The notes under the pieces were generated by a model that was given only the letters and a program-made list of their open reading frames with translations, did no database searches and was not told the origin of the DNA. The position numbers were made by a program, and so were the translations under genes. Source: a phage. Taken from it: a stretch of 41,268 nucleotides of DNA. The stretch lies in sequence record PX216937.1; one strand, 5' to 3'. Below are positions 23,858 through 40,564 of this stretch, in pieces (position 1 is the first letter of the stretch; each line of letters starts with the position of its first letter).

Positions 23858-24150
23858 TACTTCACCTCGCGAATAGTTGCAGGTGCAAACTTAATGCCCT
23901 CTCCGTTGTGCTCAATGCCCATCTCACGGATTTCATTACGAATGCCCTGCTTAACAGCAAAGGCAACAACACCATCGGCACCATGAGTAAGAGCCTGTAC
24001 GAGTAACTCTTTGTCCTGTGCACTTACGAACTCACCATCACGAACGCTGCGAGCCAAATCTAAGATGCGTTCCTTAATCATATCCTCAGTCTCAGAGTCA
24101 ACCTTTACGGTCATTTCGAATGATACTTTAAAACGTTTAGTAATAGCCAT
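23857..24150 (-). CDS. 5.5: gp5.5 (H-NS-binding protein in T7)
   Basis: 97 aa, MAITKRFKVSFEMTVK...SPATIREV-type ends; size and position match T7 gp5.5. Confidence 0.8.
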   Translation of the reverse strand: MAITKRFKVSFEMTVKVDSETEDMIKERILDLARSVRDGEFVSAQDKELLVQALTHGADGVVAFAVKQGIRNEIREMGIEHNGEGIKFAPATIREVK

Positions 24151-24472
24151 GATATTTCTCCTTTGCTTCTAAGGTGATGACCTTCCGTTCTCGGTTAGTC
24201 TTGATTATATGTTCCCTCTTAGGGATACATTGTAGGTGCTCTATGTTACAGCACCCGCGATTCAGGCATAGATGGTCTATCTCATACCCTTCTGGTATCT
24301 TTCCGTGCCTTAACTCCCACACGAATCTGTGAAACATAAAGGCAAACTTAGTACCCTTTCGGGAAGACCCTATGCTATACCGGAAGTATCCATCTTGGTT
24401 CCGCTTATGGGAGACGCAGACAATACATCCAGTCGGCATGGTGTGAAACCTGAGCGTGGCAACGCCTCCCAT
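24137..24472 (-). CDS. 5.3: HNH endonuclease (gp5.3-like)
   Basis: 111 aa with H...YEIDHLCLNRGCCNIEHLQCIPKREH, a classic HNH/zinc-binding motif; T7 gp5.3 is also HNH-like at this position. Confidence 0.8.
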   Translation of the reverse strand: MGGVATLRFHTMPTGCIVCVSHKRNQDGYFRYSIGSSRKGTKFAFMFHRFVWELRHGKIPEGYEIDHLCLNRGCCNIEHLQCIPKREHIIKTNRERKVITLEAKEKYHGYY

Positions 24473-24483
24473 AGTCTACCTCC

Positions 24484-26622
24484 TTAGTGACATACCGCCC
24501 AATTCGGACCCATCTTTCCTTCAGTATCTAACTGACACCGGAAGTTAAAGTGGTCGCCTACCCAGCGCATAGCCTGTTGGGATACTTCGATTACAACTTT
24601 GGCAATCTCTTCTGTACGGCAAGCAAGCTGTTGCTCATCGTGAATCCACCCCATGAGGCAGAAGTCACCATCCCAGCCATGTTTGTAGCCCATCTCAAGG
24701 AGCATCTCTTCTGTCTTAACAATCCACAGTTTACAAATCAGAGCACCAGCAGACTGCAACAAGGTGTTCAACGCAGCGTGAGGACTACGGACGTGTACTT
24801 TACGACCATCCAAGCCACGAACCCAACGACGTTTCCAAGTTACTTTCTGTTCCCCGCCAACCCACTTAGAGTCCTTGACGAGTGTCCCTGTGATTGCTTC
24901 ACGTAACGCAGCAATAGCCGGAGTTTGCTCAAGGAAGTTCTTGATGAGTCGCTTACCGTCTTCGGCAGTACCACCAACAATCTGTCCAATCTTCGCAGCA
25001 CCAGCACCATAGAGGAACCCATAGATAAACGTCTTAGCGTTATCACGAGTAGGCAGACCAGCAGCCAATTGGTTCTTCGTATGGATGTCACCAGTGAGGA
25101 TAGTCTCAACGTACTCACCCTCATCATAACGATACATGAAGTGGCCCAAGCAGCGTAGCTCAAGGCCGGACGCATCCACACCAACTTGAATCCAAGGGTC
25201 TCCGATATAGCAAACTTCACCGTCGATAACCACCTTCTTCTTGTTATGCTCAGCACCGAAAGCAGCACGGCAAGGTTCACCATATGCAGCACGGATTGAA
25301 GGCACCTGTGCCACGTTAGGGAAGCTATGGGTTGCACGTCCAGTTACCGCACCGTTCGGGTTAACGCTTCCGTGAATACGACCATCATCTCCAATCATTC
25401 GGAGCCAGCCGTTATCACCTTCAGCAACCTGACCGATACGCTTCTGAATCATAAGGTATTCTTTAATCAACTCAATGCAACGCTGTGCATCCGGGTCGTC
25501 TACCTTAACGTGCTCTAAGACCTCATCGTCTACCTTTGGTGCACCACTAGGAGTGAACTCAACGGGCACCCAGCCAGCTTTGGTAAGCACACGGGTGATG
25601 TGGTCTCGGCTCGCAGGGTTAAACACAACGTGCTCAACCGGAGTATACGGAGCACCCTCAACGTAATCGCGGGTATCCAACTCACACGGTTCTAAGCCTT
25701 CACGTTGCTTCTTGTTCTTAGGCTTCTTAAAGATTCCACCCTGTTTCGGGTACTTCACACGAGGATACTTGGTGAGCGGCTTTCCGGTACGAGGATGCCT
25801 GAATGCTTCAGTACCGCCCTTAGCGGAGTACCATGAGCCAAACGTATTGGTTAACTCTACGAGTAGCTCACCACGTCTGCCAGCGAGTTCTGCGTAGAGA
25901 TTCTCCAAGGACTTGATGTCAATAGGAAAACCGTTACGTTCCATCTTAGCTAACAACCATGCAGCATCATGTTCCAGTTTGACAGCCTCAATGCTACCAT
26001 TCCAGAAACGGTCTGCTTCTGTGCTTCCAGCGGGTGTCTCGTTAGGGAAATAGAAAGTGTTACTACACAGTTTCTCAAAGAGTGCCTTGGTGACTACAAC
26101 GTCTTGAACGTTATATTCCATCATGTCTTCATTGAAGAACAGCCACTCCATCCCGTCTTCGTAGTCATCACCAGACTCTTCCAGTGACTTCTTAAAGTCG
26201 TCCTTGTACTCACCCTTCATTTCGCCTAAGCGGTAGCCCCATGCTTCCAGAGCGTGAGACCCAAAGCGACTACCCGGTAGCTTGCCAGCACGGAGCAGCC
26301 CAGCATCGGTGTCTTTGATGTTAGAGTAAATCAGTCGGGACATCACTAGGGTGTCCAAGACGTTCTCTTTCGGGAACTTAACGTCGCGGCCTAATAGTTT
26401 CTTGGCGAGCAACTCAATTACCGGGATGTCATACTTGTGACCGTTGTGGAACACAATGAGACCACCGCGAGCAACCTCAGCTTCGAGAGCATCAATGTAT
26501 GCCCCAAAGTCATCAGGTCGATAACGGATGTACTGGTCAGTTGTGTAGTCGTAAGTCACCGCACAGTGAAATTGACTAACGTTGTGCAGCAACCCGTTTG
26601 TTTCGATGTCGGATAGTAACAT
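24484..26622 (-). CDS. 5: DNA polymerase (gp5), family A with 3'-5' exonuclease domain
   Basis: 712 aa (T7 gp5 is 704); begins MLLSDIETNGLL (exonuclease Exo I motif DIE); synteny after gene 4. Confidence 0.97.
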   Translation of the reverse strand: MLLSDIETNGLLHNVSQFHCAVTYDYTTDQYIRYRPDDFGAYIDALEAEVARGGLIVFHNGHKYDIPVIELLAKKLLGRDVKFPKENVLDTLVMSRLIYSNIKDTDAGLLRAGKLPGSRFGSHALEAWGYRLGEMKGEYKDDFKKSLEESGDDYEDGMEWLFFNEDMMEYNVQDVVVTKALFEKLCSNTFYFPNETPAGSTEADRFWNGSIEAVKLEHDAAWLLAKMERNGFPIDIKSLENLYAELAGRRGELLVELTNTFGSWYSAKGGTEAFRHPRTGKPLTKYPRVKYPKQGGIFKKPKNKKQREGLEPCELDTRDYVEGAPYTPVEHVVFNPASRDHITRVLTKAGWVPVEFTPSGAPKVDDEVLEHVKVDDPDAQRCIELIKEYLMIQKRIGQVAEGDNGWLRMIGDDGRIHGSVNPNGAVTGRATHSFPNVAQVPSIRAAYGEPCRAAFGAEHNKKKVVIDGEVCYIGDPWIQVGVDASGLELRCLGHFMYRYDEGEYVETILTGDIHTKNQLAAGLPTRDNAKTFIYGFLYGAGAAKIGQIVGGTAEDGKRLIKNFLEQTPAIAALREAITGTLVKDSKWVGGEQKVTWKRRWVRGLDGRKVHVRSPHAALNTLLQSAGALICKLWIVKTEEMLLEMGYKHGWDGDFCLMGWIHDEQQLACRTEEIAKVVIEVSQQAMRWVGDHFNFRCQLDTEGKMGPNWAVCH

Positions 26623-26630
26623 TGTGTTTA

Positions 26631-26757
26631 CTCCTTAAGCGGATTGATAAGTGGGAACAGAGTGTCTGTCCCATTAGTGAGTTGTACTGATTGCTCAGAA
26701 GTCTTGACCATCGTCTTCTGGTTCCCAGCCGCTATCTCCATCTCCTTCATCTTCAGG
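26631..26757. repeat. 127-bp exact duplicate of 27911..28037 (gene 4 3' end plus phi4.3 promoter and Shine-Dalgarno), inserted directly upstream of gene 5
   Basis: Base-by-base comparison: ctccttaagcggattgataagtgggaacagagtgtctgtcccattagtgagttgtactgattgctcagaagtcttgaccatcgtcttctggttcccagccgctatctccatctccttcatcttcagg occurs at both sites. Confidence 0.9.
26666..26688 (-). promoter_or_regulatory. Duplicated copy of the phi4.3-type promoter (AGTACAACTCACTAATGGGACAG) about 45 bp upstream of the gene 5 start
   Basis: Identical to the promoter at 27946..27968; lies within the duplicated segment. Confidence 0.7.
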
Positions 26758-26868
26758 ATCAGGTCGATAACGGATGTACTGGTCAGTTGTGTAGTCGTAA
26801 GTCACCGCACAGTGAAATTGACTAACGTTGTGCAGCAACCCGTTTGTTTCGATGTCGGATAGTAACAT
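26696..26868 (-). pseudogene. Truncated second copy of the gene 5 5' end (first 37 codons plus RBS; exact repeat 26758..26884 of 26512..26638) fused in frame to the duplicated gene 4 tail (20 codons); potential 57-aa ORF
   Basis: 26758..26884 is identical to 26512..26638. Reading from the duplicated ATG gives MLLSDIETNGLLHNVSQFHCAVTYDYTTDQYIRYRPD followed in frame by [20 protein letters not shown] and a stop. Below the track's size cut-off. Confidence 0.6.
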
Positions 26869-26887
26869 TGTGTTTACTCCTTAAAGT

Positions 26888-27286
26888 TTAACGATGGGTG
26901 TATCCCATATAGTCTTTCGCGTTGATTACCTTCAGGTTCTCAGCTTTGATTCCAACGTTGTTACTGGTCACTAAGGTTCCATTAGGAGCAATGCGGGACA
27001 CTCGTGAGCACCAGCAGATGTTGCCAGCGACCGTGCGCACGTACCACAGAGAGGATGTCTCAGTTGATGCGCAGAAGTCACCTGCCTTAATGTGGGTCAT
27101 GGTGTCCTTATCGAACAGCTTGGTGTTTGCCTTGGCAGGTTTCACCCATTGACCACGAGAGCGAGTCCACCCTAAGTTCTTCAGGATGTGTATCGCAGAG
27201 TCACGAGCACATTCATACTCTTTGACATCAGCCAGTTCAGCTTGCAGCTTAGAGATTTCAGCTTCGATTACATTACGATTACGCAT
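26888..27286 (-). CDS. 4.7: Hypothetical protein at the gene 4.7 position
   Basis: 132 aa (T7 gp4.7 is 135); its ATG directly follows the phi4.7-like promoter. Identity by synteny and size only. Confidence 0.6.
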   Translation of the reverse strand: MRNRNVIEAEISKLQAELADVKEYECARDSAIHILKNLGWTRSRGQWVKPAKANTKLFDKDTMTHIKAGDFCASTETSSLWYVRTVAGNICWCSRVSRIAPNGTLVTSNNVGIKAENLKVINAKDYMGYTHR

Positions 27287-27293
27287 AGTGTTG

Positions 27294-27316
27294 TTCTCCC
27301 ATTAGTGAGTTGAATA
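27294..27316 (-). promoter_or_regulatory. Phage RNAP promoter (phi4.7-like), TATTCAACTCACTAATGGGAGAA
   Basis: Class-II-like variant of the promoter consensus immediately upstream of the 4.7-position ORF. Confidence 0.7.
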
Positions 27317-27319
27317 GAT

Positions 27320-27378
27320 TTCATACAAAAGTTAATCACGAAGGCCACCCGGAGATGACCTTTAGTTTAACTCTTTTA
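27320..27378 (-). promoter_or_regulatory. RNase III-type processing hairpin (R4.7-like)
   Basis: aaagttaatcacgaaggccacccggagatgacctttagtttaactc is one of a family of related imperfect hairpins (also 33741..33810, 34270..34400, 39787..39840, 40210..40265), placed between genes as T7 R-sites are. Confidence 0.5.
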
Positions 27379-27678
27379 GATTCCAGACTTCGCAGACAGC
27401 ACCATGCCCTCTTCGCCAGCCACTTTGGACAGCAGGAGTTCACGAGTCTTGTCTTCACCTACAGCCACAGTAGCAGCTACAGCAACGGAAGCCAGCAGAC
27501 GACCTGCCTGTGTGTCATCCAAAGTTACACGCTGTGTGTGCGCCTTGGTGGACTTATGGTCTTTCCAACGGTAGACCAGAGTGACCTTGCCATTACGGAC
27601 GTTGATGTGCACTCGACGAGCATACTGGTCGATGGTGTCGGACAGACGGATCGTGTTGCCGGGGAATTTAATAGCCAT
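27376..27678 (-). CDS. 4.5: Hypothetical protein at the gene 4.5 position
   Basis: 100-aa ORF between 4.3 and the R4.7-like hairpin; synteny only. Confidence 0.55.
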   Translation of the reverse strand: MAIKFPGNTIRLSDTIDQYARRVHINVRNGKVTLVYRWKDHKSTKAHTQRVTLDDTQAGRLLASVAVAATVAVGEDKTRELLLSKVAGEEGMVLSAKSGI

Positions 27679-27691
27679 AATGTGTCACTCC

Positions 27692-27904
27692 TTACAGGAA
27701 GAATTTGTTGAGGTCGGTTGCTTTAGCTGCAATCTTAGCAGCAGACGTTACGCCAGCACTTGCATCTTCAGACAGCAGACGGGCCTGTTTAGCCAAGCGT
27801 TGAGCCTGTTCAGCGTCCTTACGTGCCTTGTCGTTCAGACGTTTAGCTTCACGGAAGTACATTTTGACTACCAGCTTACCAAGAGTATTGATAAATTTAA
27901 ACAT
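27692..27904 (-). CDS. 4.3: gp4.3-like small protein (70 aa from the internal Met MFKFINTLGKLVVKMYFREAKRLNDKARKDAEQ...)
   Basis: Internal Met has AAGGAG 7 nt upstream and lies downstream of the phi4.3 promoter; the track's upstream extension overlaps the promoter and the gene 4 end. Confidence 0.65.
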   Translation of the reverse strand: MFKFINTLGKLVVKMYFREAKRLNDKARKDAEQAQRLAKQARLLSEDASAGVTSAAKIAAKATDLNKFFL

Positions 27905-27945
27905 TGTGAGTCTCCTTAAGCGGATTGATAAGTGGGAACAGAGTG

Positions 27946-27968
27946 TCTGTCCCATTAGTGAGTTGTAC
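27946..27968 (-). promoter_or_regulatory. Phage RNAP promoter (phi4.3-like), AGTACAACTCACTAATGGGACAG
   Basis: Promoter-like 23-mer between the gene 4 stop and the gene 4.3 start. Confidence 0.7.
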
Positions 27969-27975
27969 TGATTGC

Positions 27976-29785
<1,810 letters not shown>

Positions 29786-29835
29786 AGTGGTTACTCCTTA
29801 TACAATTTTAGCGAACAAAGGGAGAAACCTTTCGG

Positions 29836-29858
29836 TCCTCCCATAGTGAGTTCTATTA
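29836..29858 (-). promoter_or_regulatory. Phage RNAP promoter (phi3.8-like), TAATAGAACTCACTATGGGAGGA
   Basis: Reverse-complement promoter-like match just downstream of gene 3.5. Confidence 0.7.
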
Positions 29859-30311
29859 ACCCCAATCGCTTGTGACCAGTTCTCCAGTCTTCAGCCAGCG
29901 GCTCAAGTTGAAGGACGGACAGGCTTTAGGTGCCACGTCATGGTGGGCCATCAGCTTAGCACCGGGATACTTAGCGAGCAGGGTCTGCAAGAGACCACGG
30001 AGTTCGAACATCTGTGCTGGCGTAAAGTTAGCTTTGAACTTACCCTTATCGTCAATGCCACCTACGAGGCACACACCGACTGACTTACTATTCCAGTCCT
30101 TAACGTGAGACCCTACGACATCGACCGGACGGCCTTCTTCGATTGTCCCATCACGGCGAATAATGAAGTGGTAGCCTACATCAAGCCAGCCTTGTTCTTT
30201 ATGCCACTGACGGATTTCACGCAGCCCAATATTCATGGACGCTTTGGTTGCGCTACAGTGGACAAAGATTGCTTCTGTCACAGCGCGTGGTTTGAATTGT
30301 ACCTTACTCAT
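29856..30311 (-). CDS. 3.5: Lysozyme / N-acetylmuramoyl-L-alanine amidase (gp3.5; RNAP inhibitor in T7)
   Basis: 151 aa; AIFVHCSATK, REIRQWHKEQGWLDVGYHFII, GVCLVGGIDDKGKF.ANFTPAQM and APKACPSF match recalled T7 lysozyme. Confidence 0.95.
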   Translation of the reverse strand: MSKVQFKPRAVTEAIFVHCSATKASMNIGLREIRQWHKEQGWLDVGYHFIIRRDGTIEEGRPVDVVGSHVKDWNSKSVGVCLVGGIDDKGKFKANFTPAQMFELRGLLQTLLAKYPGAKLMAHHDVAPKACPSFNLSRWLKTGELVTSDWG

Positions 30312-30754
30312 TTCTTCTTCACCTCTTTAAATTTATCGAATGGAACATCCTTAGAAGGCTCTTTCAGCCAATCAACTGGAATTAACTTGTCAGCAAACAG
30401 AATGCCATGCTTCTCGCACCACTCACCGTAACTGGTCGGAGACCCTTTGTACAGCTTGGAGCGGCTTGAAGAGAACACGATGCGTACATCAAGTTCAGGG
30501 TACTGTTCACGAATCAGCAAGTGTTTCTTGCGGTCCTCACTGTCCCACAGACCTTTGGTTTCCACAAAGATGCCATTAGGTAACAGGAAGTCCGGGCAAT
30601 AGGTATGGTTGCTTGCAGGAATAACATAGGGTACTCGCCAACGCTCATAGTCGAACTTAATGTTCTTTGACTCAAGCTGTTTGCTTACCTTGTCCTCCAA
30701 GCCAGAGCGAAAGGCACCCACACGAGTGCCCCGACCTGCATATCCCTTAGCCAT
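30308..30754 (-). CDS. 3: Endonuclease I (Holliday-junction resolvase, gp3)
   Basis: 148 aa; VGAFRSGLEDKVSKQLESK, VPYVIPASNHTY.PDFLLPNGIFVETKGLW and HLLIREQ.PELD.RIVFSSSR match recalled T7 gp3. Confidence 0.95.
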   Translation of the reverse strand: MAKGYAGRGTRVGAFRSGLEDKVSKQLESKNIKFDYERWRVPYVIPASNHTYCPDFLLPNGIFVETKGLWDSEDRKKHLLIREQYPELDVRIVFSSSRSKLYKGSPTSYGEWCEKHGILFADKLIPVDWLKEPSKDVPFDKFKEVKKK

Positions 30755-31452
30755 TAGAAGTCGCCATCTTCATCTTCATCGTCTTCCGGTTCTTCGTTCC
30801 AACCAGAATCATTTTGGGGACGTTGACGGGCCTGGCTCTCATCAGCTTCGTAGCCATCTTCTTCGATTTCATCACCCCAATCGTCATCACCACCACCGAA
30901 CTCGACCAGCTTAATCAGCATCACGGAATCCAGTTGCAGCTTAACGGATGCACCTGCCACAGCAGACCAACCATAAGGGAACAGGGTGTATTTAATCTTC
31001 AGTTCAGAGCCACCTGAGATAGCCGGACGCTCACCACGAATGCGCTTACCTTTGGAGTCCACAATAGCCAAGTCGATTGGTTTGTTCTCACCAGTCTTCT
31101 TGTCAGTGAACGAGCCGTAGCACTTGAAGTTGAACGTAGTGGTTCCATCTTCGTTATCCATGAAAGGCATGTCGCCAACGTATGGCTTCAGCGGTTTCTT
31201 ACCCTTGACAACTTTCGGCGGGTTCGCTTCGTACTCTTCGAGACGTGCAGCGTAGTCCGTTTCGTGGGCTTCGACAATCTCGTCAATCATTTTCTGACAG
31301 CGAGGGTCGTCGTTGGATACAGTCAGTGACACTTTGTAGACACCACGTTCGTTCTTGAAGTCACCACTACCGAAGTCTGGTTTAGCCAGATAGCAGTAAG
31401 GTTCAGCAACACCACGAGCGGAAGTGAATACTTTACGTTTTGCGAATGCCAT
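30754..31452 (-). CDS. 2.5: Single-stranded DNA-binding protein (gp2.5)
   Basis: 232 aa, the same length as T7 gp2.5; FTSA.G.AEPY.Y.AKPD, RGVYKV, KDPRCQ.M.DEIV and EEYEANPP motifs; acidic C-terminus ending DEDGDF. Confidence 0.95.
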   Translation of the reverse strand: MAFAKRKVFTSARGVAEPYCYLAKPDFGSGDFKNERGVYKVSLTVSNDDPRCQKMIDEIVEAHETDYAARLEEYEANPPKVVKGKKPLKPYVGDMPFMDNEDGTTTFNFKCYGSFTDKKTGENKPIDLAIVDSKGKRIRGERPAISGGSELKIKYTLFPYGWSAVAGASVKLQLDSVMLIKLVEFGGGDDDWGDEIEEDGYEADESQARQRPQNDSGWNEEPEDDEDEDGDF

Positions 31453-31499
31453 AATGTTTCTCCTTTAGTTTCTGAAAGTTAAAAGTGGGAAACGTTGTG

Positions 31500-31522
31500 T
31501 CTCCCAATAGTGAGTCCTATTA
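31500..31522 (-). promoter_or_regulatory. Phage RNAP promoter (phi2.5-like), TAATAGGACTCACTATTGGGAGA
   Basis: Reverse-complement promoter match between gene 2 and gene 2.5. Confidence 0.8.
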
Positions 31523-31711
31523 AACCTTACGGTCTGGACGGATGCGTGTCACTGCGAAGCCAGCCGGGACATATTGCCACTCAGCTAACTCGTTGGCCTC
31601 TTCAAGAGACACAGCGAACACAGGTACTTCGAACGATTGGCCTTGGCCTTCTACCGTTGCGAAGAACTTCTTGTCACCGTTGACCAGTGACCCTTTGTTT
31701 AAATTGCTCAT
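31520..31711 (-). CDS. 2: Inhibitor of host RNA polymerase (gp2)
   Basis: Internal start [59 protein letters not shown]; close to recalled T7 gp2 ([11 protein letters not shown] identical). Confidence 0.9.
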
Positions 31712-31886
31712 TGTCCTCTCTCCTTCCACTGATTATATAACTCTAAGTAGTCGGTGTTGCCTGTCTTTTCAAACATACGCTCACACCATTCACTTGGTTT
31801 TACCATATTCCACCTCGATAGCCCGATACATTAAACGAAGCAATGCACCTACTCCAGCACAAATTAATCCGAAGTATAGAATGTCA

Positions 31887-32231
31887 TTAAGCATAGCACT
31901 TGTCCTTATGTTTCTCGTAAAGTTCACCATAGAACCCAGCTTTCGACATGTCCTTCTCTAAGAATGCCAGTTCGGATTTCTTACCAGCACGGAGGCGGTA
32001 CTTAAGGATGTTCCCTAAGCAGTACCCTTTGAACTGTTCGCGGGTCATCGACCGGGCAATCACTTCGATAGCCTCAATGTCATCAAACAACATATAGTGG
32101 CTCGGAGTCCGAACACCCTCTATATCTTGTGGTTTGTTAACTATTGGCTTACCAACATGCGGATAGCGGTCGTCACCATTACATGCTTCACAGTACGTGG
32201 TGCTATCACATCTTCCTGTGTTACGTGACAT
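31887..32231 (-). CDS. 1.7: gp1.7-like protein (nucleotide kinase family in T7), short form
   Basis: 114 aa; the C-terminal about 70 aa (IEGVRTPSHYMLFDDIEAIEVIARSMTREQFKGYC.GNILKYRLRAGKKSELA.LEKD...KHKDKCYA) matches recalled T7 gp1.7, and the N-terminal C..C..DDRYPH motif is kept; T7 gp1.7 is 196 aa. Confidence 0.85.
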   Translation of the reverse strand: MSRNTGRCDSTTYCEACNGDDRYPHVGKPIVNKPQDIEGVRTPSHYMLFDDIEAIEVIARSMTREQFKGYCLGNILKYRLRAGKKSELAFLEKDMSKAGFYGELYEKHKDKCYA

Positions 32232-32494
32232 TAGAACACCTCCTTGATACGTGCAATGACCAGACGGACTTTAGGGAAACGGGTGACGAGAACCGGAATG
32301 AAAGGCCGGGAGCCAGTGGTCGCTTCTTTATATAATCCAGTCGTAATCACAGCGTGAACACGGGGTGCTAACTCAATGGTCGAACCAAGCACTTTAGGGA
32401 TGACTGCGTGTTTCTCAGAGGCAAGAACCGTCGAGCGGTCAGCACCACGAGCCGAAAAGATACCATTAGATTTATTGAAGTGAAGTCTTAACAT
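32231..32494 (-). CDS. Hypothetical early protein (gene 1.6 position)
   Basis: 87 aa from the Met preceded by GGAGGA, immediately downstream of the phi1.6-like promoter; synteny only. Confidence 0.55.
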   Translation of the reverse strand: MLRLHFNKSNGIFSARGADRSTVLASEKHAVIPKVLGSTIELAPRVHAVITTGLYKEATTGSRPFIPVLVTRFPKVRLVIARIKEVF

Positions 32495-32500
32495 TTGTGT

Positions 32501-32523
32501 GTCCTCCATATGTGAGTCGTATT
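32501..32523 (-). promoter_or_regulatory. Phage RNAP promoter variant (phi1.6-like), TAATACGACTCACATATGGAGGA
   Basis: Promoter-like 23-mer with deviations around -4..-1. Confidence 0.6.
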
Positions 32524-32602
32524 AGCAATCAGGCCAGCAGTTGTCGTCAATGATAACGAGGGCAAACGTGGCAACAATGATAGCAACAATTAGAAATAGC
32601 AT
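32522..32602 (-). CDS. Possible small hydrophobic peptide (26 aa, MLFLIVAIIVATFALVIIDDNCWPDC)
   Basis: ATG preceded by GGAGGAA directly downstream of the phi1.5-like promoter. It is the in-frame 3' part of track ORF 32522..32836, whose upstream part overlaps the ligase gene and is rejected. Confidence 0.35.
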   Translation of the reverse strand: MLFLIVAIIVATFALVIIDDNCWPDC

Positions 32603-32623
32603 GAGGTCGTTCCTCCATAGTGA
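32601..32623 (-). promoter_or_regulatory. Phage RNAP promoter variant (phi1.5-like), TCTATTAGACTCACTATGGAGGA
   Basis: Promoter-like 23-mer immediately downstream of the TE-like hairpin. Confidence 0.55.
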
Positions 32624-32626
32624 GTC

Positions 32627-32658
32627 TAATAGAAACGCGAAAAGGCCAGCCCCTGTTA
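32627..32658 (-). terminator. TE-like early intrinsic terminator downstream of the ligase gene
   Basis: Minus-strand GGUCAGUCC-UUAACA-GGGGCUGGCC hairpin (with G-U pairs) followed by UUUUCGCGUUUCU; T7 places TE after gene 1.3. Confidence 0.55.
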
Positions 32659-32678
32659 AGGACTGACCGTTTGTTGGT

Positions 32679-33719
32679 TTACATCTTGACCGTTGGGTCT
32701 GACTCGACACCACGGAACATAACGAACGATGGGTGACGCAGAGAACCGTCTGGAGTTTCCTCCATGTAGGCAACCTGACAGGCGTGTCCATCGTAGAACT
32801 TCTCGCCCTCAATGTTAACCGTATTGGTGAACTCATCCATCAACGCTTGGCTGATATTGTTAGCTGAGACTACGCGACCGGACTCCAAGAGAACCTCGAA
32901 GCCAATCACTTTACCTTCATTAGCCAGACCCGGAGTACCCCAATTGAGTCCAACGATGACACCATCAGCTTCACATTCAGGCTTCATCTTCCAGTAGCCA
33001 GACTTCTTGCCACGCATGTAGAAGCCCAGTGGGTCTTTGACTACCAGACCTTCATGGCCATCGGCACGGGCTTTCTCATAGAGGGCATTCAGTTCTACCA
33101 TATCGTACACTTCGTAGCTCTCAGAGATGTCCCATTCGATTTCAGGGAAGTGCTCACGAAGAACAGGAAGCATAGCCTTAACGTGCTCACGCATCAGTAG
33201 GTTCATCACTTCGTAGGTCTCACCGGAGACCATAGAGTCAAACGGCATGACACCATAGAGAACAACCTTTAGTTTCTCAGGTGATAGCATGAATGGGTGA
33301 TTCTTACGGATTTTACCGTACATATCTACAGCTTCCACAAAGTTCTCGTCTGTGTTGAACTCAAGGTTCTTATCCTTAACCCACTTGGTCCTCAGTAAGC
33401 CAGACCCCGTGTTAAAGTCCACGCCTTTGACCATCAGTTCACCATCAAGCATGAAGCCATCAGGGAAGATACAGCGGTCATCCTTCAGGAGCATCTCCCA
33501 GCGCTTGTCGTACCCGTTGAGATGTGACAGAGAGGGAATCTCTTTAGATACGCGAGAGAGCCACAGTGAGTCAGCAGTGTTGTCAACTACAATGTTACCA
33601 CGAACGCCATCATATTTAATGTCAGCAATCAGGTAGCCAGCTTTGTCGAGGGCTTTATTAACGGCAGACTCAACGAATGATACAGCTTTGTGTGGGTTAG
33701 TCTTAAATGTGATTTCCAT
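32679..33719 (-). CDS. 1.3: ATP-dependent DNA ligase (gp1.3)
   Basis: 346 aa; KTNP.KAVSFVESA, active-site AEIKYDGVRGNI-type motif (ADIKYDGVRGNI), GFMLDGELMVKGVDFNTGSGLLRTKW, EGKVIGFEVLLESGR and ETPDGSLRHPSFVMFRG match recalled T7 ligase. Confidence 0.97.
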   Translation of the reverse strand: MEITFKTNPHKAVSFVESAVNKALDKAGYLIADIKYDGVRGNIVVDNTADSLWLSRVSKEIPSLSHLNGYDKRWEMLLKDDRCIFPDGFMLDGELMVKGVDFNTGSGLLRTKWVKDKNLEFNTDENFVEAVDMYGKIRKNHPFMLSPEKLKVVLYGVMPFDSMVSGETYEVMNLLMREHVKAMLPVLREHFPEIEWDISESYEVYDMVELNALYEKARADGHEGLVVKDPLGFYMRGKKSGYWKMKPECEADGVIVGLNWGTPGLANEGKVIGFEVLLESGRVVSANNISQALMDEFTNTVNIEGEKFYDGHACQVAYMEETPDGSLRHPSFVMFRGVESDPTVKM

Positions 33720-33740
33720 GATGGAACTCCTATGTATGTG

Positions 33741-33810
33741 TTATTGGTTAATGTTTAAGCAAAAGTTAATCACAAAGGCAACCCGTGAAGATGACCTTTA
33801 GTTTAACTCT
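33741..33810 (-). promoter_or_regulatory. RNase III-type processing hairpin (R1.3-like)
   Basis: aaagttaatcacaaaggcaacccgtgaagatgacctttagtttaactc, a paralogue of the 27320..27378 element. Confidence 0.5.
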
Positions 33811-33833
33811 TTCGCAATAGTGAGTCGTATTAC
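33811..33833 (-). promoter_or_regulatory. Phage RNAP promoter (phi1.3-like), TAATACGACTCACTATTGCGAAA
   Basis: Reverse-complement promoter match overlapping the gene 1.2 stop codon. Confidence 0.7.
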
Positions 33834-34102
33834 TTCCAGTGCTTCATATCACTGTGAACCTTGCGGAGCCATTCAGTCTGTGCATTACAGCGAACGTCTT
33901 CGTCTGACTGTTCGAAACACTTAGCGGTCAGCATTAAGCCGTTCCGTAAGACCACTCGAAGTGTCTCTCCGGCGACCATCCGTCGCTGTGCGAAGTCCTC
34001 ATAGCGATAAGTCTCAACGACCACATTTGCATCATGGTCTTCTTTAAGTCGTTCGATAGCGTCTTTGTATGCTATTAAGTTACCACTGTATAAGCGACCC
34101 AT
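33830..34102 (-). CDS. 1.2: gp1.2 (dGTPase inhibitor in T7)
   Basis: 90 aa, begins MGRLYSGNL and ends HWK; recalled T7 gp1.2 begins MGRLYSGNL and ends DWK. Confidence 0.85.
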   Translation of the reverse strand: MGRLYSGNLIAYKDAIERLKEDHDANVVVETYRYEDFAQRRMVAGETLRVVLRNGLMLTAKCFEQSDEDVRCNAQTEWLRKVHSDMKHWK

Positions 34103-34251
34103 TAGAGTGCCTCCTTCCAGTTGCGTTTCTCAGAGTTGCCACGTTGTGTCTTGTGGCGTTTCTTCATGCGGTCTTTACGTTCCTGCCATTCAGCACCATG
34201 TTCATTGATTACGTTGTTGCGCTTAGTGGTCGGTTCAAAGTTGGTACGCAT
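34102..34251 (-). CDS. 1.1: gp1.1-like small basic protein (49 aa, MRTNFEPTTKRNNVINEHGAEWQERKDRMKKRHKTQRGNSEKRNWKEAL)
   Basis: Found by translation (under 60 aa, not in the track); stop overlaps the gene 1.2 ATG (TAATG); basic composition and position resemble T7 gp1.1. Confidence 0.55.
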   Translation of the reverse strand: MRTNFEPTTKRNNVINEHGAEWQERKDRMKKRHKTQRGNSEKRNWKEAL

Positions 34252-34269
34252 AATATTGTTTCCTTCTGT

Positions 34270-34400
34270 GTAGTTAGTGGCAGTTAATCATGAAGGCCAC
34301 CACATCCATCCTTTCCGGTTCGACGGTGTGATTTTCCTACGTCCTACTCACTGGTTTGACAGCTATTCGGTAACGGGAGGTGATGACCTTGAGTTTAACT
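34270..34400 (-). promoter_or_regulatory. Extended RNase III-type hairpin region (R1.1-like)
   Basis: Starts and ends with the same arms as the 27320/33741 elements (ttaatcatgaaggccacc ... gatgaccttgagtttaac) but has about 70 extra bp inside. Confidence 0.45.
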
Positions 34401-34407
34401 TTCAGTG

Positions 34408-34430
34408 TTTCCCATTAGTGAGTCGTATTG
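34408..34430 (-). promoter_or_regulatory. Phage RNAP promoter (phi1.1B-like), CAATACGACTCACTAATGGGAAA
   Basis: Promoter match; the stop codon and last five codons (DNTTH) of the upstream ORF are encoded within it. Confidence 0.7.
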
Positions 34431-34972
34431 TCTGCAACCTTACGTGCAATCTCAATGCGACCAGCTACGTCTTTCTTATAATAGGTGAACTCTTTGCGCT
34501 CACCATCAGTGCACGTCTGTGTCAGCAGGTAGCGGTCCGATTGTTCTTTCCAGTGCAAACATGTAACCTCTTTGCCGCAAGACCCTATGCCTAGCTTGAA
34601 CTCAGTGCGCTTCCATCCAGCATCCGGGATGTGAGCAGTAAACTTGATAGACGTGATGTCACTGTGAGTGTACTCACGGATGGTACTCTTTGCCTCTTTA
34701 AGTTCCTTGCGGTACTCCACTGCCTCAGCGCGTAGACGCTCAATGAGTTCTCGTTGGTTCGACATGTCATATTGTTGTTCGAACTCTAAGGTACGGATTC
34801 GACCAGCCAGTTCCTGCTTCTCTCGCCATCCGTCTTCAAGTCTCTCTTTGAGTGCGTGAGAGTTCTTCTCTTCTTTGATTAGCTTGGTGAGAAATACCTT
34901 TGAGCGATTGTAGTATGTTGCTGCAAGAATGGTTGCCACGAGAGCGCCTACTGAAGTGATGAAAGTAAACAT
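34415..34972 (-). CDS. Hypothetical membrane-anchored protein with coiled-coil and Cys-rich C-terminal region (gene 1.05 position, between phi1.1A and phi1.1B)
   Basis: 185 aa from the Met preceded by AAGAGGAAA: N-terminal hydrophobic helix (FTFITSVGALVATILAATYY), charged heptad-like middle, C-terminal C-x6-C-x2-H...C-x3-E. No T7 counterpart that I recognise. Confidence 0.6.
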   Translation of the reverse strand: MFTFITSVGALVATILAATYYNRSKVFLTKLIKEEKNSHALKERLEDGWREKQELAGRIRTLEFEQQYDMSNQRELIERLRAEAVEYRKELKEAKSTIREYTHSDITSIKFTAHIPDAGWKRTEFKLGIGSCGKEVTCLHWKEQSDRYLLTQTCTDGERKEFTYYKKDVAGRIEIARKVADNTTH

Positions 34973-35032
34973 GATTATGTTTCCTCTTAAAGTTAAACTT
35001 AAAGTTATCTTAAAGTAGGGAAACCCCAAGGG

Positions 35033-35055
35033 TCTCCCAATAGTGAGTCGTATTA
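35033..35055 (-). promoter_or_regulatory. Phage RNAP promoter (phi1.1A-like), TAATACGACTCACTATTGGGAGA
   Basis: Consensus match 8 bp downstream of the gene 1 stop. Confidence 0.85.
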
Positions 35056-35062
35056 GATTCCG

Positions 35063-37714
35063 TTAGGCAAACGCAAAGTCTGACTTAAGGATTTCTTGGA
35101 GGTCAAGAGCGCCTTTAGCTGGCATCTCAGGCATCTTGTCAAGCTGTGACTCGTGCAACTGGTCAGCAAACTGTTCATAGAAGTCTGCAAGTACATCGTT
35201 CTCTTCGTAAGTGTTAACCATCGTTTCACGCACTGCTTTAAACAGGTTGCCAGCATCAGCAGGAATAGTACCAAAGGAGTCATGAATCAGTGCAAAGGAT
35301 TCCACACCGTAGACCTCATTGGAGCGAACCACAGTCATGCGCAGGTGACTACCATCCATTGAGTGAACAAAGTTAGGTGCGATGCCTGACTCCTGCTTAC
35401 GTGCGTCAATTCCGCTATCCTTGTTGGTGTTCACGGTAGGCTGCAAACGAATCTGCCCCAAGAACATCAGGTTCAAACGAGTCTGTACTGGCTTCTTGTA
35501 TTCCTGCCAGACCGGGAAGCCATCAGGAGTTACCCAATGTACCGCGCAGCGCTTGCGGAGAACCTCTTTAGTCTTCTTGTCCTTGACTTCAGCAGCCAGA
35601 AGTTTAGCAGCAGACTTCAACCAGTTCATCGCTTCAACCGCTGCGACAACTGTGACCGTTACAGCGTTCCAAATCAGTTTAGCCATATAGCCAGCCGCTT
35701 GGTTCGGTTGAGTGAACATCAATCCCTTGCCATCGTCGATAGCGGGCTGAATGGTGTCCTCAAGAACTTGGTCACGGAAGCCGTACTCTTTGGAACCGTA
35801 AGCCAACGTCATGACAGAACGTTTAGTGACCTTGCGGGTTACACCGTATGCCAGCCACTGACCAGCCAGTTCCTTCGTGCCTAACTTCAGCTTCTCAGTG
35901 ATTTCTCCCGTGTCCTTATTGGTCACTGTCTCTACTTCGTTGTCGGTCCCGTTGATAACATCTTGATTCAGGATTTCGTTAACACGGTCAGCAACAATGC
36001 GGTAGATGTCTTGGACTTCCTTGCTCGGCAGCAGGTTAACAGCGCGTCCACCTACTTCATCACGCAGCATTGCAGAGAAGTGCTGAATACCAGAGCAAGA
36101 GCCATCGAACGCCAGCGGCAGAGAGCAGTTGTAGTTCATACCGTGGTGCTGCACACCTGCATACTCAAAGCAGAATGCGAGGAAGCAGAACGGAGAGTCT
36201 TGTTCAGCCCACCAAGTGTTAGCAATAGGGTCAGCCGCAACGCTCATGATGTTCTCGTGGTTGTCCTCAATGAACTTGATGCGTTCTGCAAAGTCCACCT
36301 TGTCCACACCAGCAGTGTTTGCACCGTGAATCTTCAGCCAGTAGTACCCATCGACACCAATCGGTTTACCTTTAGCGAGCGTTAACAGACCCTTGGTCAT
36401 GTCGTTGCCTTGCGGGTTGAACATCGGTACAGCGTACACACGACCGCGCCAGTCCATGTTCATCGGGAACCAGATAGCTTTAAACTGTGCGAACTTATTG
36501 GCTTGTCCTAACATGAACTCCATGCTCATGCGACGAGACACGCGAGCCTTCTCTTTGCGATAGATTGCGGAGGCCGCTTTCTTCCACGCTTTCAGAGCCG
36601 CTTCGTTCGTGTCGATGTCTTCAGGTTTGACCGGAAGTTCACCACGTTCGAGAGCAGGTACATCTTCAACCGGGCAATGCTTCCAGTTCACAATCTCGTT
36701 GACCACTGCCAGAACCTTCTTGTTAATCTTCCAAGGAGTATTCTGTGCGATGTTCACCGCCTTGTAAACTTCAGGCATGTACACGTCGTTGTAACGCTCA
36801 AGTCCCTTCTTGGAACCAGTGCGAACCAGAGAGAGAGGCTTGCGACCAGCAGCCCAATATCCACCACCTACCGGAGAAGTCCAAGGCTTCGGCGGGACCA
36901 CACAAGGTTGGTACATTGGAGCGATTGCAGCCAGTGCGCCAGCACGTTTAGATAGCAGGTCAACATATTGCTCGGTTAACTGGATGTACTCACCATCCTT
37001 CTCAACGTTACCAGCAAACGGTCGGTGTAACTCAACGAGACCAGTAGACCCGATGAGCAGTTCCAACATGCGCACACCAACGTGGATTGATTCTTCAGGT
37101 GTCCATGTAGTCCACTTGGTTTGCAGTTGACCAGCATCTAACATCTTGCCTTCTACAGCTTGCATGAATGCTTTCTTGTAGACGATACCAACGCGCTTGT
37201 TCAGTGCCTCCTGTACGTGATTCTTAAAGTGTTTCGCTTCTTCATCACGAATGCGTCCGAAACGTAACTCATCTTCAATGCTACGACCAATCTTAGTGGC
37301 GACCGATTGAAGGTTCGTGTATTCCTCTTTCGTCAAGCAAGCCAGTGTGACCTTCAGTGTGATGAATGCGGCAGCTTCCGGTGCAATCTTCTGTACCAGA
37401 TTGTAGGCCACTGGACGCTTGCCACGCTTAGCTTCCACTTCGGTGAACCAAGTGTTCCATGCTTCAATGAACTTCGGTGCGAGAGATGACAGGAGCGGTT
37501 TAGCCACTGCGTTATCACCGAATTCACCAGCTTTGATTTGACGTTCCATAGCCTTCAGGAAACGCTTCTCGCCTTCGGTGTGCGCTTCGTGTTCCAACTC
37601 AAGCTGCGTAGCTGCAAGCTGTGCGCCATAATGGTCAGCCAGAATGTTGTACGGCTGAATTGCGTTAGCGATGTCAGAGAAGTCGTTCTTTGGTGCGTTG
37701 ATTACGTTAGTCAT
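35063..37714 (-). CDS. 1: Single-subunit DNA-directed RNA polymerase (T7 RNAP family)
   Basis: 883 aa, the same length as T7 RNAP; long identical blocks (GRRPLALVRT-like, KAIWFP.NMDWRGRVYAV, GNDMTKGLLTLAKGKPIG, DSPFCFLAFCFEYAGVQHHG, LPLAFDGSCSGIQHFSAMLRDEVGGRAVNLLPS, specificity-loop region NTNKDSGIDARKQESGIAPNFVHS, C-terminal FAFA). Confidence 0.99.
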   Translation of the reverse strand: MTNVINAPKNDFSDIANAIQPYNILADHYGAQLAATQLELEHEAHTEGEKRFLKAMERQIKAGEFGDNAVAKPLLSSLAPKFIEAWNTWFTEVEAKRGKRPVAYNLVQKIAPEAAAFITLKVTLACLTKEEYTNLQSVATKIGRSIEDELRFGRIRDEEAKHFKNHVQEALNKRVGIVYKKAFMQAVEGKMLDAGQLQTKWTTWTPEESIHVGVRMLELLIGSTGLVELHRPFAGNVEKDGEYIQLTEQYVDLLSKRAGALAAIAPMYQPCVVPPKPWTSPVGGGYWAAGRKPLSLVRTGSKKGLERYNDVYMPEVYKAVNIAQNTPWKINKKVLAVVNEIVNWKHCPVEDVPALERGELPVKPEDIDTNEAALKAWKKAASAIYRKEKARVSRRMSMEFMLGQANKFAQFKAIWFPMNMDWRGRVYAVPMFNPQGNDMTKGLLTLAKGKPIGVDGYYWLKIHGANTAGVDKVDFAERIKFIEDNHENIMSVAADPIANTWWAEQDSPFCFLAFCFEYAGVQHHGMNYNCSLPLAFDGSCSGIQHFSAMLRDEVGGRAVNLLPSKEVQDIYRIVADRVNEILNQDVINGTDNEVETVTNKDTGEITEKLKLGTKELAGQWLAYGVTRKVTKRSVMTLAYGSKEYGFRDQVLEDTIQPAIDDGKGLMFTQPNQAAGYMAKLIWNAVTVTVVAAVEAMNWLKSAAKLLAAEVKDKKTKEVLRKRCAVHWVTPDGFPVWQEYKKPVQTRLNLMFLGQIRLQPTVNTNKDSGIDARKQESGIAPNFVHSMDGSHLRMTVVRSNEVYGVESFALIHDSFGTIPADAGNLFKAVRETMVNTYEENDVLADFYEQFADQLHESQLDKMPEMPAKGALDLQEILKSDFAFA

Positions 37715-37740
37715 TGTTGCCTCACGTTGTTAAGAAAGTT

Positions 37741-37790
37741 TATCTATAAAGGCCAGCAGTCAGTGCCGACCTTGAAGATACACCTTATCA
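37741..37790 (-). promoter_or_regulatory. RNase III-type hairpin (R1-like) between gene 0.7 and gene 1
   Basis: Minus-strand AAGGUCGGCACUGACUGCUGGCCUU imperfect hairpin; no phage promoter here, consistent with host-RNAP transcription of gene 1. Confidence 0.45.
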
Positions 37791-38888
37791 GCCCATCAGT
37801 TTAGCGTCAAGTACCTTGTCGATGTTCAAAGGGAGACCCGCTTGGATTGCGAGGCGGTCCCCTAGTAGCCACTTAAGGCCGTTCACTTGGTCAATCTTGC
37901 GTATCGTTGCATTACCATTACGCAGCCAGAAGTCATGCCATGCAGACCCCATGAGCATCTCGGCACGGCGTTCGTTGCGCTCAATCGCACCGCGTTCCCT
38001 GCGGATTGCCATAAAATGTAAGCGGTCACGTTCAGCTACCTTAGCACGTAACTTACGGTTGCGCTTACGGCGTTTCATGTTAGATTTCTTGTTCATCCAG
38101 TAAGTGCCTTTAGGGTCACGCTTGGCCTTGCGGTTGCGACAGCGTTCAATGATGCGCTCGTTAGCTATCGCCTCAACCTCGGCAATCAGTGCTTCAGGGT
38201 CCAGAGGAAAACCGTCCTCACGTTCACGGTCATGTGAGAAACTCACCGGGTCAGTGATGTACGGAACATCGTTATCGTCGAACATAATGTTCCCGCTGTG
38301 CATGTCGAAGGACGCAATGCCATGGAAGAACTCACGAATCAGCTTGCATGTCTCAACAAACTCCCCGTCCCACCCAGTGCGGAAGTCATAAGCCCCAGAG
38401 TTCCACTCAATAACCTCACGTGCAATATCAGCGTACTCGTCGTGCACCTTGTTACCAAGTGGCGCACATTCATTCAGGGCATCGAGAACCACCGTGTAGC
38501 AACCTGCATGACGTGCTACGTGATAGACGTTAGGGATACCCGCTCGGCCTTGGTGCATCCTACAGAATGCAGTGTATGCAGCACCTGAATCCTCTTTCTT
38601 AAAGCCAACCTTGATGACCCGACCCGGTAACAATTCGTGCGAGTAGGCCGCGCTAAAGTGACCATTGCCTAACATGCGGAACCCTGCATCACGCATCAGT
38701 GCGCCCAATGTGTGCCACCAGTCCTGATACTCCAAGCCGTTCGAGCCATCGGTGTCGTTACCATCGCATGTTTCACCGTTCACGATGTCAGCAGCCAGTG
38801 CAACCAGAAGAGGCTGGCGCTTGTCCAAGTCGCTAATCGGAAGAGACTTGATGATTGCCAGACGTGCCTGAATGTCGGTGTAGTTCAT
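37788..38888 (-). CDS. 0.7: Serine/threonine protein kinase with host-shutoff region (gp0.7)
   Basis: 366 aa; ETCDG, GFKMLGNGHFSAAYSH.LLP.RVIKVGFKKEDSGAAYTAFCRM.QGR.GIPNVY, HAGCYTVVLDAL, GWDGEFVETCKLIR.FF.GIASFDMHSGNIMF and DVPYITDPVSFS match recalled T7 gp0.7. Confidence 0.95.
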   Translation of the reverse strand: MNYTDIQARLAIIKSLPISDLDKRQPLLVALAADIVNGETCDGNDTDGSNGLEYQDWWHTLGALMRDAGFRMLGNGHFSAAYSHELLPGRVIKVGFKKEDSGAAYTAFCRMHQGRAGIPNVYHVARHAGCYTVVLDALNECAPLGNKVHDEYADIAREVIEWNSGAYDFRTGWDGEFVETCKLIREFFHGIASFDMHSGNIMFDDNDVPYITDPVSFSHDREREDGFPLDPEALIAEVEAIANERIIERCRNRKAKRDPKGTYWMNKKSNMKRRKRNRKLRAKVAERDRLHFMAIRRERGAIERNERRAEMLMGSAWHDFWLRNGNATIRKIDQVNGLKWLLGDRLAIQAGLPLNIDKVLDAKLMG

Positions 38889-38909
38889 TAGATTGTGTCC
38901 TATTTAAGT

Positions 38910-39128
38910 TTAAGAAATAGCGTTCAATGTATTGGTTAATGCTTGTTCGAGTGCTGCGAGCTTCTGTGCTTTGACCTTGGCCTTTCGTCTATGCCATGCA
39001 GCCCGCTCCTGTTCCTTGCGTCGTTCGAGGTTGTTCTCACGCCAAGTTCTCACGATACGCCTGTTTGCTGCATTGAGTGTACCATTAGACCTATAGCCTT
39101 TCTTCAGTTCATCAGTGTGTTGCAACAT
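38910..39128 (-). CDS. Hypothetical small basic early protein
   Basis: 72-aa ORF, Arg/Lys-rich, coiled-coil-like; lies in the early region between the SAMase-like gene and the kinase. Confidence 0.5.
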   Translation of the reverse strand: MLQHTDELKKGYRSNGTLNAANRRIVRTWRENNLERRKEQERAAWHRRKAKVKAQKLAALEQALTNTLNAIS

Positions 39129-39324
39129 AGAAGATACCTACCTTGTTAGCCTTAAAGCGCCCGTTGAGTTCACGGACTGTGAATCGTGGTAGAAAGCCAT
39201 ACTTCAGGTGCGAGAAGTTAGCCTTGTGTACCTTGAGACCCTTGCGGAAGTCCCGAAGGAAGTACGCCCCAATCAGAGCGTACATTGTGATTACGAAGAG
39301 TGCGACCATTAGACCACCTTCCAA
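39112..39324 (-). CDS. Hypothetical small early protein with N-terminal hydrophobic segment
   Basis: 70-aa ORF (the true start may be the internal Met MVALFVITMYALIGAYFL); overlaps the SAMase stop by a few codons. Confidence 0.45.
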   Translation of the reverse strand: MEGGLMVALFVITMYALIGAYFLRDFRKGLKVHKANFSHLKYGFLPRFTVRELNGRFKANKVGIFYVATH

Positions 39325-39764
39325 CCACGTCCGAACTCATCGACCGTGTAGTTACCAGTCAGTTCAGCATCTTGTGCGACCATCTGGAAAGACCCAATGC
39401 GCTCAGTCTTCCAACCACCCAAGCCACCAGCAAAGATTAGTGCGGCGCTGTGAGTCTGTGCCTTATAGACCAGCACACAGTCTTGCTCATAGTCGTTACA
39501 AGCCAACCGTGCGACACTTACAGCTTGTGCCTTGGTTGTGCAGCGTACTCGGATGGTTTGCTCTTCAGCGGGTGACTCCATGCCAGCCTCATGGTAACAA
39601 CCTGTCAAGTCAGTAGACTCAACACTGCCATATTCCATCGGTGCATTGCGTAAGCTGTTGACTAAGCGACGATGACGGCTAAGGTTATCCAAGTGGTGCA
39701 GGTTAGAGCGGAACGCTGATACCAGTACATAGAATACGTTTGCAGGCTCGTTAGTGTAAATCAT
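39309..39764 (-). CDS. S-adenosyl-L-methionine hydrolase/lyase (T3-type SAMase-like anti-restriction protein)
   Basis: 151 aa, MIYTNEPANVFYVLVSAFRSNL...YGSVESTDLTGCY...VRC..KAQA..VARLACN..EQDCVLVYK.QTH...TIDEFGR.W.V; strong resemblance to the T3 gene 0.3 SAMase as I recall it (152 aa). Confidence 0.8.
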   Translation of the reverse strand: MIYTNEPANVFYVLVSAFRSNLHHLDNLSRHRRLVNSLRNAPMEYGSVESTDLTGCYHEAGMESPAEEQTIRVRCTTKAQAVSVARLACNDYEQDCVLVYKAQTHSAALIFAGGLGGWKTERIGSFQMVAQDAELTGNYTVDEFGRGWKVV

Positions 39765-39786
39765 GATAGTGCCTCATTATGTGTGT

Positions 39787-39840
39787 GTTAGTGATAATCA
39801 AAAAGGCCACTCGCTAGGAGCGACCTTGAGTTTATCACTC
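39787..39840 (-). promoter_or_regulatory. RNase III-type hairpin (R0.5-like) between the Ocr and SAMase-like genes
   Basis: gataatcaaaaaggccactcgctaggagcgaccttgagtttatcac; imperfect hairpin of the same family as 40210..40265. Confidence 0.5.
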
Positions 39841-40179
39841 AGCAGACTCTTCGACTTCCTCAAGATATTCGTCCAGTAAGTCCTCAGCGTCTTCCCAAAG
39901 GTCAATCGTTAATTGCTCATAGATACGTGCTTGCAGAATACGGATTACATCCTTGGTGTCCGGCATCAGACCAGAATCCTCAAACTCAAGGTTAATGCCT
40001 TCGCTTGCCATTACGCTGAAAACCTCGCTGTAGTAGTGCGGAACAGCATTATCAGCAGCCATGTGCACTGCATCGTGCAGGCCATCAGTGTCACGGATGT
40101 CATCATAACGGATGTTTTCTTTCAGCATTTCGTAAGCGTGGTCAAAAACGTTGTTATAAGTCATGTTAGACATAGCCAT
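39835..40179 (-). CDS. 0.3: Ocr (overcome classical restriction) DNA-mimic anti-restriction protein
   Basis: 114 aa, [48 protein letters not shown]...[56 protein letters not shown]; near-identical to recalled T7 Ocr. Confidence 0.97.
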
Positions 40180-40209
40180 CTTGTGTTACCTCATGTGGTT
40201 GTTAGTCAG

Positions 40210-40265
40210 TGATTATCAAAAAGGCTCCTCGTATAGTGCTTTCGAGTCACCTTGAGTTAATCACT
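40210..40265 (-). promoter_or_regulatory. RNase III-type hairpin (R0.3-like) upstream of the Ocr gene
   Basis: Minus-strand GUGAUUAACUCAAGGUGACUCGAAAGCACUAUACGAGGAGCCUUUUUGAUAAUCAC imperfect hairpin. Confidence 0.5.
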
Positions 40266-40534
40266 ATCGGCTTCGTCACTGTTTAAACGCTAGTGCGTTC
40301 ACGTCATCCCGTAGTTCTTGACTACCTGTCTCGCAGTAGGGAATTACACGACCAAATTGTTAAAGAACTTTAAGTGCAGGTTTGTTAGCACCGAGTCACT
40401 TTCAGTGTGTGACCTCACAAGAACGTTATGTATGTTTCCGACAAGCTCTTTATTATCGTGGTCGCTTGTGCTTTCGGCATCTATCCACTATGTCGCGTTT
40501 TTACACCTACGACACTCGGTGTCTACTGCGATAC

Positions 40535-40564
40535 ATCTTACATCTTGTTGTTGCTGCTTGTCAA
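40535..40564 (-). promoter_or_regulatory. Host sigma70-type early promoter (A3-position): TTGACA - 18 bp - TAAGAT
   Basis: Minus-strand TTGACAagcagcaacaacaagatgTAAGAT; the hexamers are the same as those I recall for a T7 early promoter. Confidence 0.55.

Follow-up and report, generated by a model that had tools for sequence, protein, structure and literature searches.

The window, by which we mean the whole stretch of 41,268 nucleotides analysed here (PX216937.1), is a complete Berlinvirus (T7-like) genome of 41,268 bp, in reverse-complement orientation relative to the customary gene order. It carries a direct terminal repeat of 198 bp (1-198 = 41071-41268), which shows that the record was re-originated and finished, either by hand or with a termini tool. 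At least 15 phage-RNAP promoters are present in the window on the minus strand (consensus TAATACGACTCACTATTGGGA). The best match at the locus under study was phage P694 (96% identity); phage vB_EcoS_P1338 matched at 97% over 25 kb, and none of the collections searched contained an identical record. The order of the features on the minus strand is gene 4, phi4.3, 4.3, 4.5, phi4.7, 4.7, a disputed block and gene 5, and the gene identities (primase/helicase, 4.3, 4.5, 4.7 and DNA polymerase) were confirmed:

27976-29688, minus strand: gene 4, primase/helicase, 570 aa with the ATG as start; the acidic C-terminal tail has DF as its last two residues
27950-27973, minus strand: native phi4.3 promoter, a member of the phage-RNAP promoter repeat family
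27692-27904, minus strand: gene 4.3
27376-27678, minus strand: gene 4.5, toxin-antitoxin (TA) inhibitor family
27297-27320, minus strand: phi4.7 promoter
26888-27286, minus strand: gene 4.7
24484-26622, minus strand: gene 5, DNA polymerase, 712 aa

The promoters phi4.7 and phi4.3 constitute a divergent promoter subclass (..CAACTCACTAATGGGA; A at -11, where the consensus has G) when compared with the other approximately 13 promoters of the genome.

The disputed block between gene 4.7 and gene 5 is built from two different direct repeats, V1 (26631-26757 = 27912-28038) and V2 (26512-26638 = 26758-26884), both of them exact (100% identity) and reaching a maximal length of exactly 127 bp, all four flanks being mismatched. 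The copying of 26512-26638 into 26758-26884 had been reported previously and was an exact match; the duplication of 26631-26757 was also present, its source being displaced by one base from the one reported (27912-28038 instead of 27911-28037). Since the V1 and V2 pieces overlap by 8 bp (TTAAGGAG), the net extra DNA amounts to 246 bp and not to 254 bp: the insertion described in the initial annotation exists, and its size has to be corrected. Repeats of 127 bp are far beyond chance. The genome has a single further exact repeat of at least 30 bp, the terminal repeat (198 bp), and there were no internal exact repeats longer than 41 bp in four complete relatives. The features of the block are:

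26512-26638, minus strand: V2 copy that runs into the rest of the full-length gene 5 (TTAAGGAGTAAACACA plus gene 5 codons 1-37)
26758-26884, minus strand: V2 copy located after the gene 4.7 stop, at the site of the single copy in every relative (TTAAGGAGTAAACACA plus gene 5 codons 1-37)
26631-26757, minus strand: V1 extra copy (the final 20 gene 4 codons with their stop, phi4.3, 5' leader and TTAAGGAG)
27912-28038, minus strand: V1 native copy, located where gene 4 ends and gene 4.3 starts, an exact repeat
26631-26638, minus strand: shared 8-mer TTAAGGAG, the Shine-Dalgarno of 4.3 and 5; deletion junction of the putative minority haplotype discussed below
26757-26758, unstranded: blunt join with zero microhomology, the presumed concatenation point of two contig ends
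26512-26757, unstranded: 246-bp block (127+127-8), equal to the k=127 unitig of the phi4.3/TTAAGGAG-to-gene 5 deletion junction
26669-26692, minus strand: extra phi4.3 copy (AATCAGTACAACTCACTAATGGGA; +1 G at 26672), identical to the native 27950-27973
26695-26868, minus strand: 57-aa chimeric ORF (gp5 residues 1-37 plus the last 20 residues of gp4)

The copied phi4.3 24-mer belongs to the promoter repeat family, with 4/23 mismatches to the genome consensus TAATACGACTCACTATTGGG. It resembles the T7-like class II promoters phi4.3 and phi4.7 in being a member of the same family, identical to the native phi4.3; it differs from them in its location, as no phage promoter was found between gene 4.7 and gene 5 in any of the relatives inspected. 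The in-frame gp5/gp4-tail ORF of 57 aa was recovered in the ORF listing at 26695-26868 on the minus strand; judged from its sequence, its tail is acidic, with an aromatic F at the end. The acidic gp4 tail is the element that contacts gp5 in T7 (PMC12593628), as the initial annotation had indicated. The last 20 residues of the ORF, acidic and F-ending, are the window phage's counterpart of the T7 tail that meets the gp5 basic patches; in contrast, the T7 tail works within the hexameric helicase, whereas the product of the ORF in the window would be a free peptide. To our knowledge, neither a free gp4 tail peptide nor a gp5-N-terminal fusion has been described. The ORF had no PHROG family and no exact protein record (exact matches to the gp4.7 and gp5 of the window were likewise not found), and it was carried by none of the relatives compared; the homology search gave a single candidate, which was not significant, and the query is too short for this search to be informative (gp5 N-termini were unrecovered too). 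The 57-aa chimeric ORF is probably not real.

Taken at face value, these features would correspond to a real, recent mosaic, in which a tandem duplication of 1,281 bp, spanning the gene 4 tail through codon 37 of gene 5, arose first and its second copy then lost 1,035 bp between the TTAAGGAG repeats. What remained would be a second phi4.3, some 50 nt ahead of the gene 5 ATG, and a gp5(1-37)/gp4-acidic-tail peptide of 57 aa. Duplications and deletions of this sort are known from T7-like phages, where either step could occur mechanistically, and an 8-bp direct repeat contains one of the junctions; the in-frame ORF is equipped with a Shine-Dalgarno of its own; in T7, gp5 is known to be contacted by the acidic gp4 tail (PMC12593628); and 246 bp more would be tolerable for packaging, given that relatives reach 41,129 bp. 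If the mosaic were true, this would be a Berlinvirus with a dedicated phi4.3 for its DNA polymerase gene, the promoter could raise polymerase expression, and the peptide could compete for the gp5 basic patches, acting as a decoy which tunes helicase-polymerase coupling. However, in this history both free end points, for which any position over hundreds of bases was available, must lie precisely 127 bp away from the 8-mer, a distance equal to the assembler's k (a probability of about 1e-5 or less for 127/127, by our own uncomputed estimate). The absence of any homologue of the 57-aa ORF on record, the lack of microhomology at the duplication junction and a structure which is unique among related genomes and all the collections searched also count against it, and we consider a real mosaic very improbable.

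The two novel junctions behave differently with respect to direct repeats. The first lies within the 8-bp TTAAGGAG, found at 26631-26638 as previously proposed. At the second (26757|26758) the bases differ at once on both sides; no base is shared (microhomology of 0 bp), nor is the adjacent CCTGA used. The CCTGA motif noticed in the initial annotation was indeed located at this junction, in the form CCTGA-T-CCTGA; it was considered as a recombination microhomology and rejected, because both copies are retained and the join lies outside the motif. A 5-mer recurring near a junction is not unusual, and the motif is best read as a coincidence.

The structure was then compared with related phages and sequence collections, a check suggested in the initial annotation, and the mosaic was found in no relative or collection searched. 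The relatives inspected were 11: seven contigs with an identical gp4.5, plus P694, 285P, P483 and P1338. The block was missing in all of them (11/11); the gene 4.7 stop leads directly into TTAAGGAGTAAACACAATG and gene 5 in 10/11, and an HNH gene lies in between in the remaining one (1/11). The blunt junction 26757|26758 was absent from approximately 110 related phage records that have both halves, from IMG/VR and from the GTDB genomes; in the JGI metagenomes, the 22-mer spanning it had a sole match, in an unrelated GC-rich contig. This match (contig L003) was rejected as a real junction, the contig being GC-rich, cytochrome-oxidase-like and non-phage, and the match one of chance. The deletion junction, joining phi4.3/TTAAGGAG to gene 5, was absent from the related phage records and from IMG/VR.

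A value of 127 is the largest k used by the assembler SPAdes. We reconstructed the wild type from the window by removing 26639-26884 (41,022 bp), and a variant by removing 1,035 bp between the two TTAAGGAG 8-mers; the joint de Bruijn graph of wild type plus variant was compacted at k=127, and also at k = 99, 125, 126, 128 and 129. At k=127 the unitigs correspond to window positions 1-26638 (26638 bp), 26512-26757 (246 bp), 26758-28038 (1281 bp) and 27912-41070 (13159 bp). Placed in this order, the four unitigs tile the window exactly, with two merged overlaps of 127 bp and one blunt join, at 26757|26758; V2 (26512-26638) is the vertex of the k=127 graph at which the haplotype paths rejoin. At the other values (k = 99, 125, 126, 128 and 129) the unitig lengths differ and the observed repeats are not reproduced. 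The exact k=127 tiling indicates that 26512-26757 represents a bubble's alternative branch, placed beside the wild-type branch.

The mosaic block is consequently best interpreted as not being a real feature: we assign a probability of about 0.88 to a scar of k=127 de Bruijn assembly and contig joining, produced by SPAdes or a SPAdes-based pipeline. Both repeats have a length of exactly 127 bp, the maximum k of SPAdes, which makes a contig-stitching error almost certain. An assembly artefact was the third option offered in the initial annotation, and it is the one supported by the 127/127 geometry, the k=127 tiling, the blunt join and the absence of the structure elsewhere. The recent rearrangement with a second phi4.3 and a decoy peptide, proposed in the same place, finds no support: the exact 127-bp repeats equal the SPAdes maximum k, and 26512-26757 (246 bp = 127+127-8) is the graph edge of a deletion haplotype. 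In phage genomes, SPAdes is documented to leave artefactual duplications of 127 bp at the ends of contigs (PMC5923482; PMC8104045). The window resembles these cases in that its duplicates are exact, measure 127 bp and lie at would-be contig ends. It differs from them in that the usual artefact has one 127-mer at both contig ends, whereas here two different 127-mers stand back to back inside a finished record; this pattern, unlike the usual one, needs a two-haplotype bubble and a blunt rejoining of contig ends.

The sequence of events that we propose is as follows. The read set would have contained two haplotypes: the normal genome, with TTAAGGAG and gene 5 coming immediately after the gene 4.7 stop, and a minority without 1,035 bp (4.3, 4.5, 4.7). 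The two haplotypes would form a bubble in the graph, in which a wild-type edge of 1,281 bp and a deletion edge of 246 bp run between one and the same pair of 127-mers. Collapse of the terminal repeat makes T7-like genomes assemble as circles; the contig path could have started in the wild-type branch, circled, met the bubble again, taken the unused deletion branch and stopped. The resulting contig would have one 127-mer at its start and the other at its end and, as these 127-mers are different, there would be no terminal overlap to alert the user. Re-origination at the physical terminus, with addition of the terminal repeat, would then have joined the old ends bluntly at 26757|26758. An extra manual or tool step must be assumed here, because SPAdes makes no blunt joins within a contig, and this weighs against the artefact. 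We infer the assembler, and hence the use of k=127, from the geometry alone, and we likewise infer the wrap-and-rejoin history of the contig.

Two further observations speak against an artefact. The genome was otherwise finished with care, terminal repeats included; and the in-frame fusion, together with intact copies of the promoter and the Shine-Dalgarno, resembles a real event that was selected. An in-frame fusion would arise by chance with a probability of 1/3, and the intact copies of the promoter and the Shine-Dalgarno are an automatic consequence of copying. The fusion in frame, the boundaries on codons and the intact regulatory parts are also what would be expected from an engineered construct, a promoter/peptide cassette placed upstream of gene 5. 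Against this origin, the block lacks restriction sites, linkers, tags and foreign sequence, every base copies neighbouring phage DNA, and no design rationale accounts for the 127/127 geometry, so that deliberate engineering is extremely improbable. Biological processes yielding a symmetric 119+8+119 block were considered as well; we could conceive of none.

Under the assembly-scar reading, some reads must run from phi4.3/TTAAGGAG straight into gene 5 to produce the 246-bp edge. The segment missing from the presumed minority haplotype would be:

26885-27919, minus strand: 1,035 bp comprising 4.3, 4.5, phi4.7 and 4.7 (boundaries ambiguous by 8 bp)

Given the artefact, it is reasonably probable that the edge reflects a real deletion variant, and its likeliest source is probably a phage sub-population without 4.3-4.7, deleted between the 8-bp repeats. 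The initiation regions of 4.3 (27905-27919) and 5 (26623-26638), both on the minus strand, have in common TTAAGGAG, a spacer of 4-5 nt and ACAATGTT. A split homology of 16 nt, 1,035 bp apart and with only dispensable genes in between, makes a natural deletion hotspot. Genes 4.2, 4.3, 4.5 and 4.7 are of low essentiality in T7, and T7 4.3 and 4.5 are toxic on over-expression (PMC11482910); by analogy, the presumed 1,035-bp deletion would be viable. The window is similar to the T7 deletions between direct repeats in that the putative 1,035-bp deletion lies between 8-bp repeats and removes genes that are dispensable in T7; it differs in that the deletion is deduced from a 246-bp block within a consensus sequence. 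Pierce and Masker reportedly described, in 1989, T7 deletions between short direct repeats, and T7 deletion mutants are said to have been obtained by Studier. A natural relative without 4.3-4.7, with phi4.3 fused to gene 5, was considered as a donor and rejected, there being none in the phage records or in IMG/VR.

The 246-bp edge could alternatively come from chimeric reads formed in vitro, in which case the block would still be an artefact and there would be no real variant. PCR or library template switching at the TTAAGGAG-N4/5-ACAATGTT regions of 4.3 and 5 would generate such reads, and very deep coverage would have kept the edge. The 8+8 bases of homology in the 4.3 and 5 leaders are compatible with this route, and over-deep phage data are known to give extra SPAdes sequence, for which subsampling is advised (PMC5923482). 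However, chimeric connections of low coverage are stripped by SPAdes, and an edge that survives cleanly points to a frequency that is not trivial; moreover, the loss of dispensable genes, some of them toxic when over-expressed, is a plausible laboratory-passage variant. A purely in vitro origin of the edge is therefore possible, if rather doubtful.

The assembly-scar reading has practical consequences. The promoter duplication and the decoy peptide call for neither annotation nor follow-up before the junction is verified. After correction the genome would measure 41,022 bp, made up of 40,824 bp and a single 198-bp terminal repeat. The scar is itself informative: the lysate probably contained a sub-population lacking 4.3-4.7, including the toxin-antitoxin inhibitor gp4.5, in which phi4.3 would be fused directly to the polymerase gene. 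The fingerprint, namely two different exact repeats of length k back to back, together with an adjacent block of 2k minus the microhomology length, marks a two-haplotype bubble traversed twice, and public phage genomes can be screened for it.

Assembly scars seem to be common in phages of the Berlinvirus group. The records of P694 (KP090454.1) and P483 (KP090453.1) have exact end overlaps of 229 bp (1-229 = 40249-40477) and 226 bp (1-226 = 40604-40829), respectively, and both begin in the late-gene region, near holin/packaging genes; these overlaps have the appearance of redundancy from wrap-around assembly, not of genuine terminal repeats. The closest relative, vB_EcoS_P1338 (PP882707.1), has the same reverse-complement orientation as the window, is labelled circular and starts 118 bases inside the left end of the window; the two records may come from a common laboratory or pipeline.

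Other minor variations were detected around gene 5. Immediately downstream of it there is an HNH homing-endonuclease ORF of 111 aa (24137-24472, minus strand; PHROG endonuclease/HNH, E=5e-28), and P1338 also has an HNH gene directly downstream of gene 5; elsewhere among the relatives, HNH genes were located between 4.7 and 5 (contig L007) and upstream of gene 4 (contig L004). The gp5 of the window has 712 aa, compared with 704 aa in the relatives, the polymerase being otherwise 94% identical; the 8 extra residues fall in a single variable patch at residues 461-476 (approximately 25195-25242, minus strand), which reads KKKVVIDGEVCYIGDP in the window and LK--DGKP--DP in the relatives.
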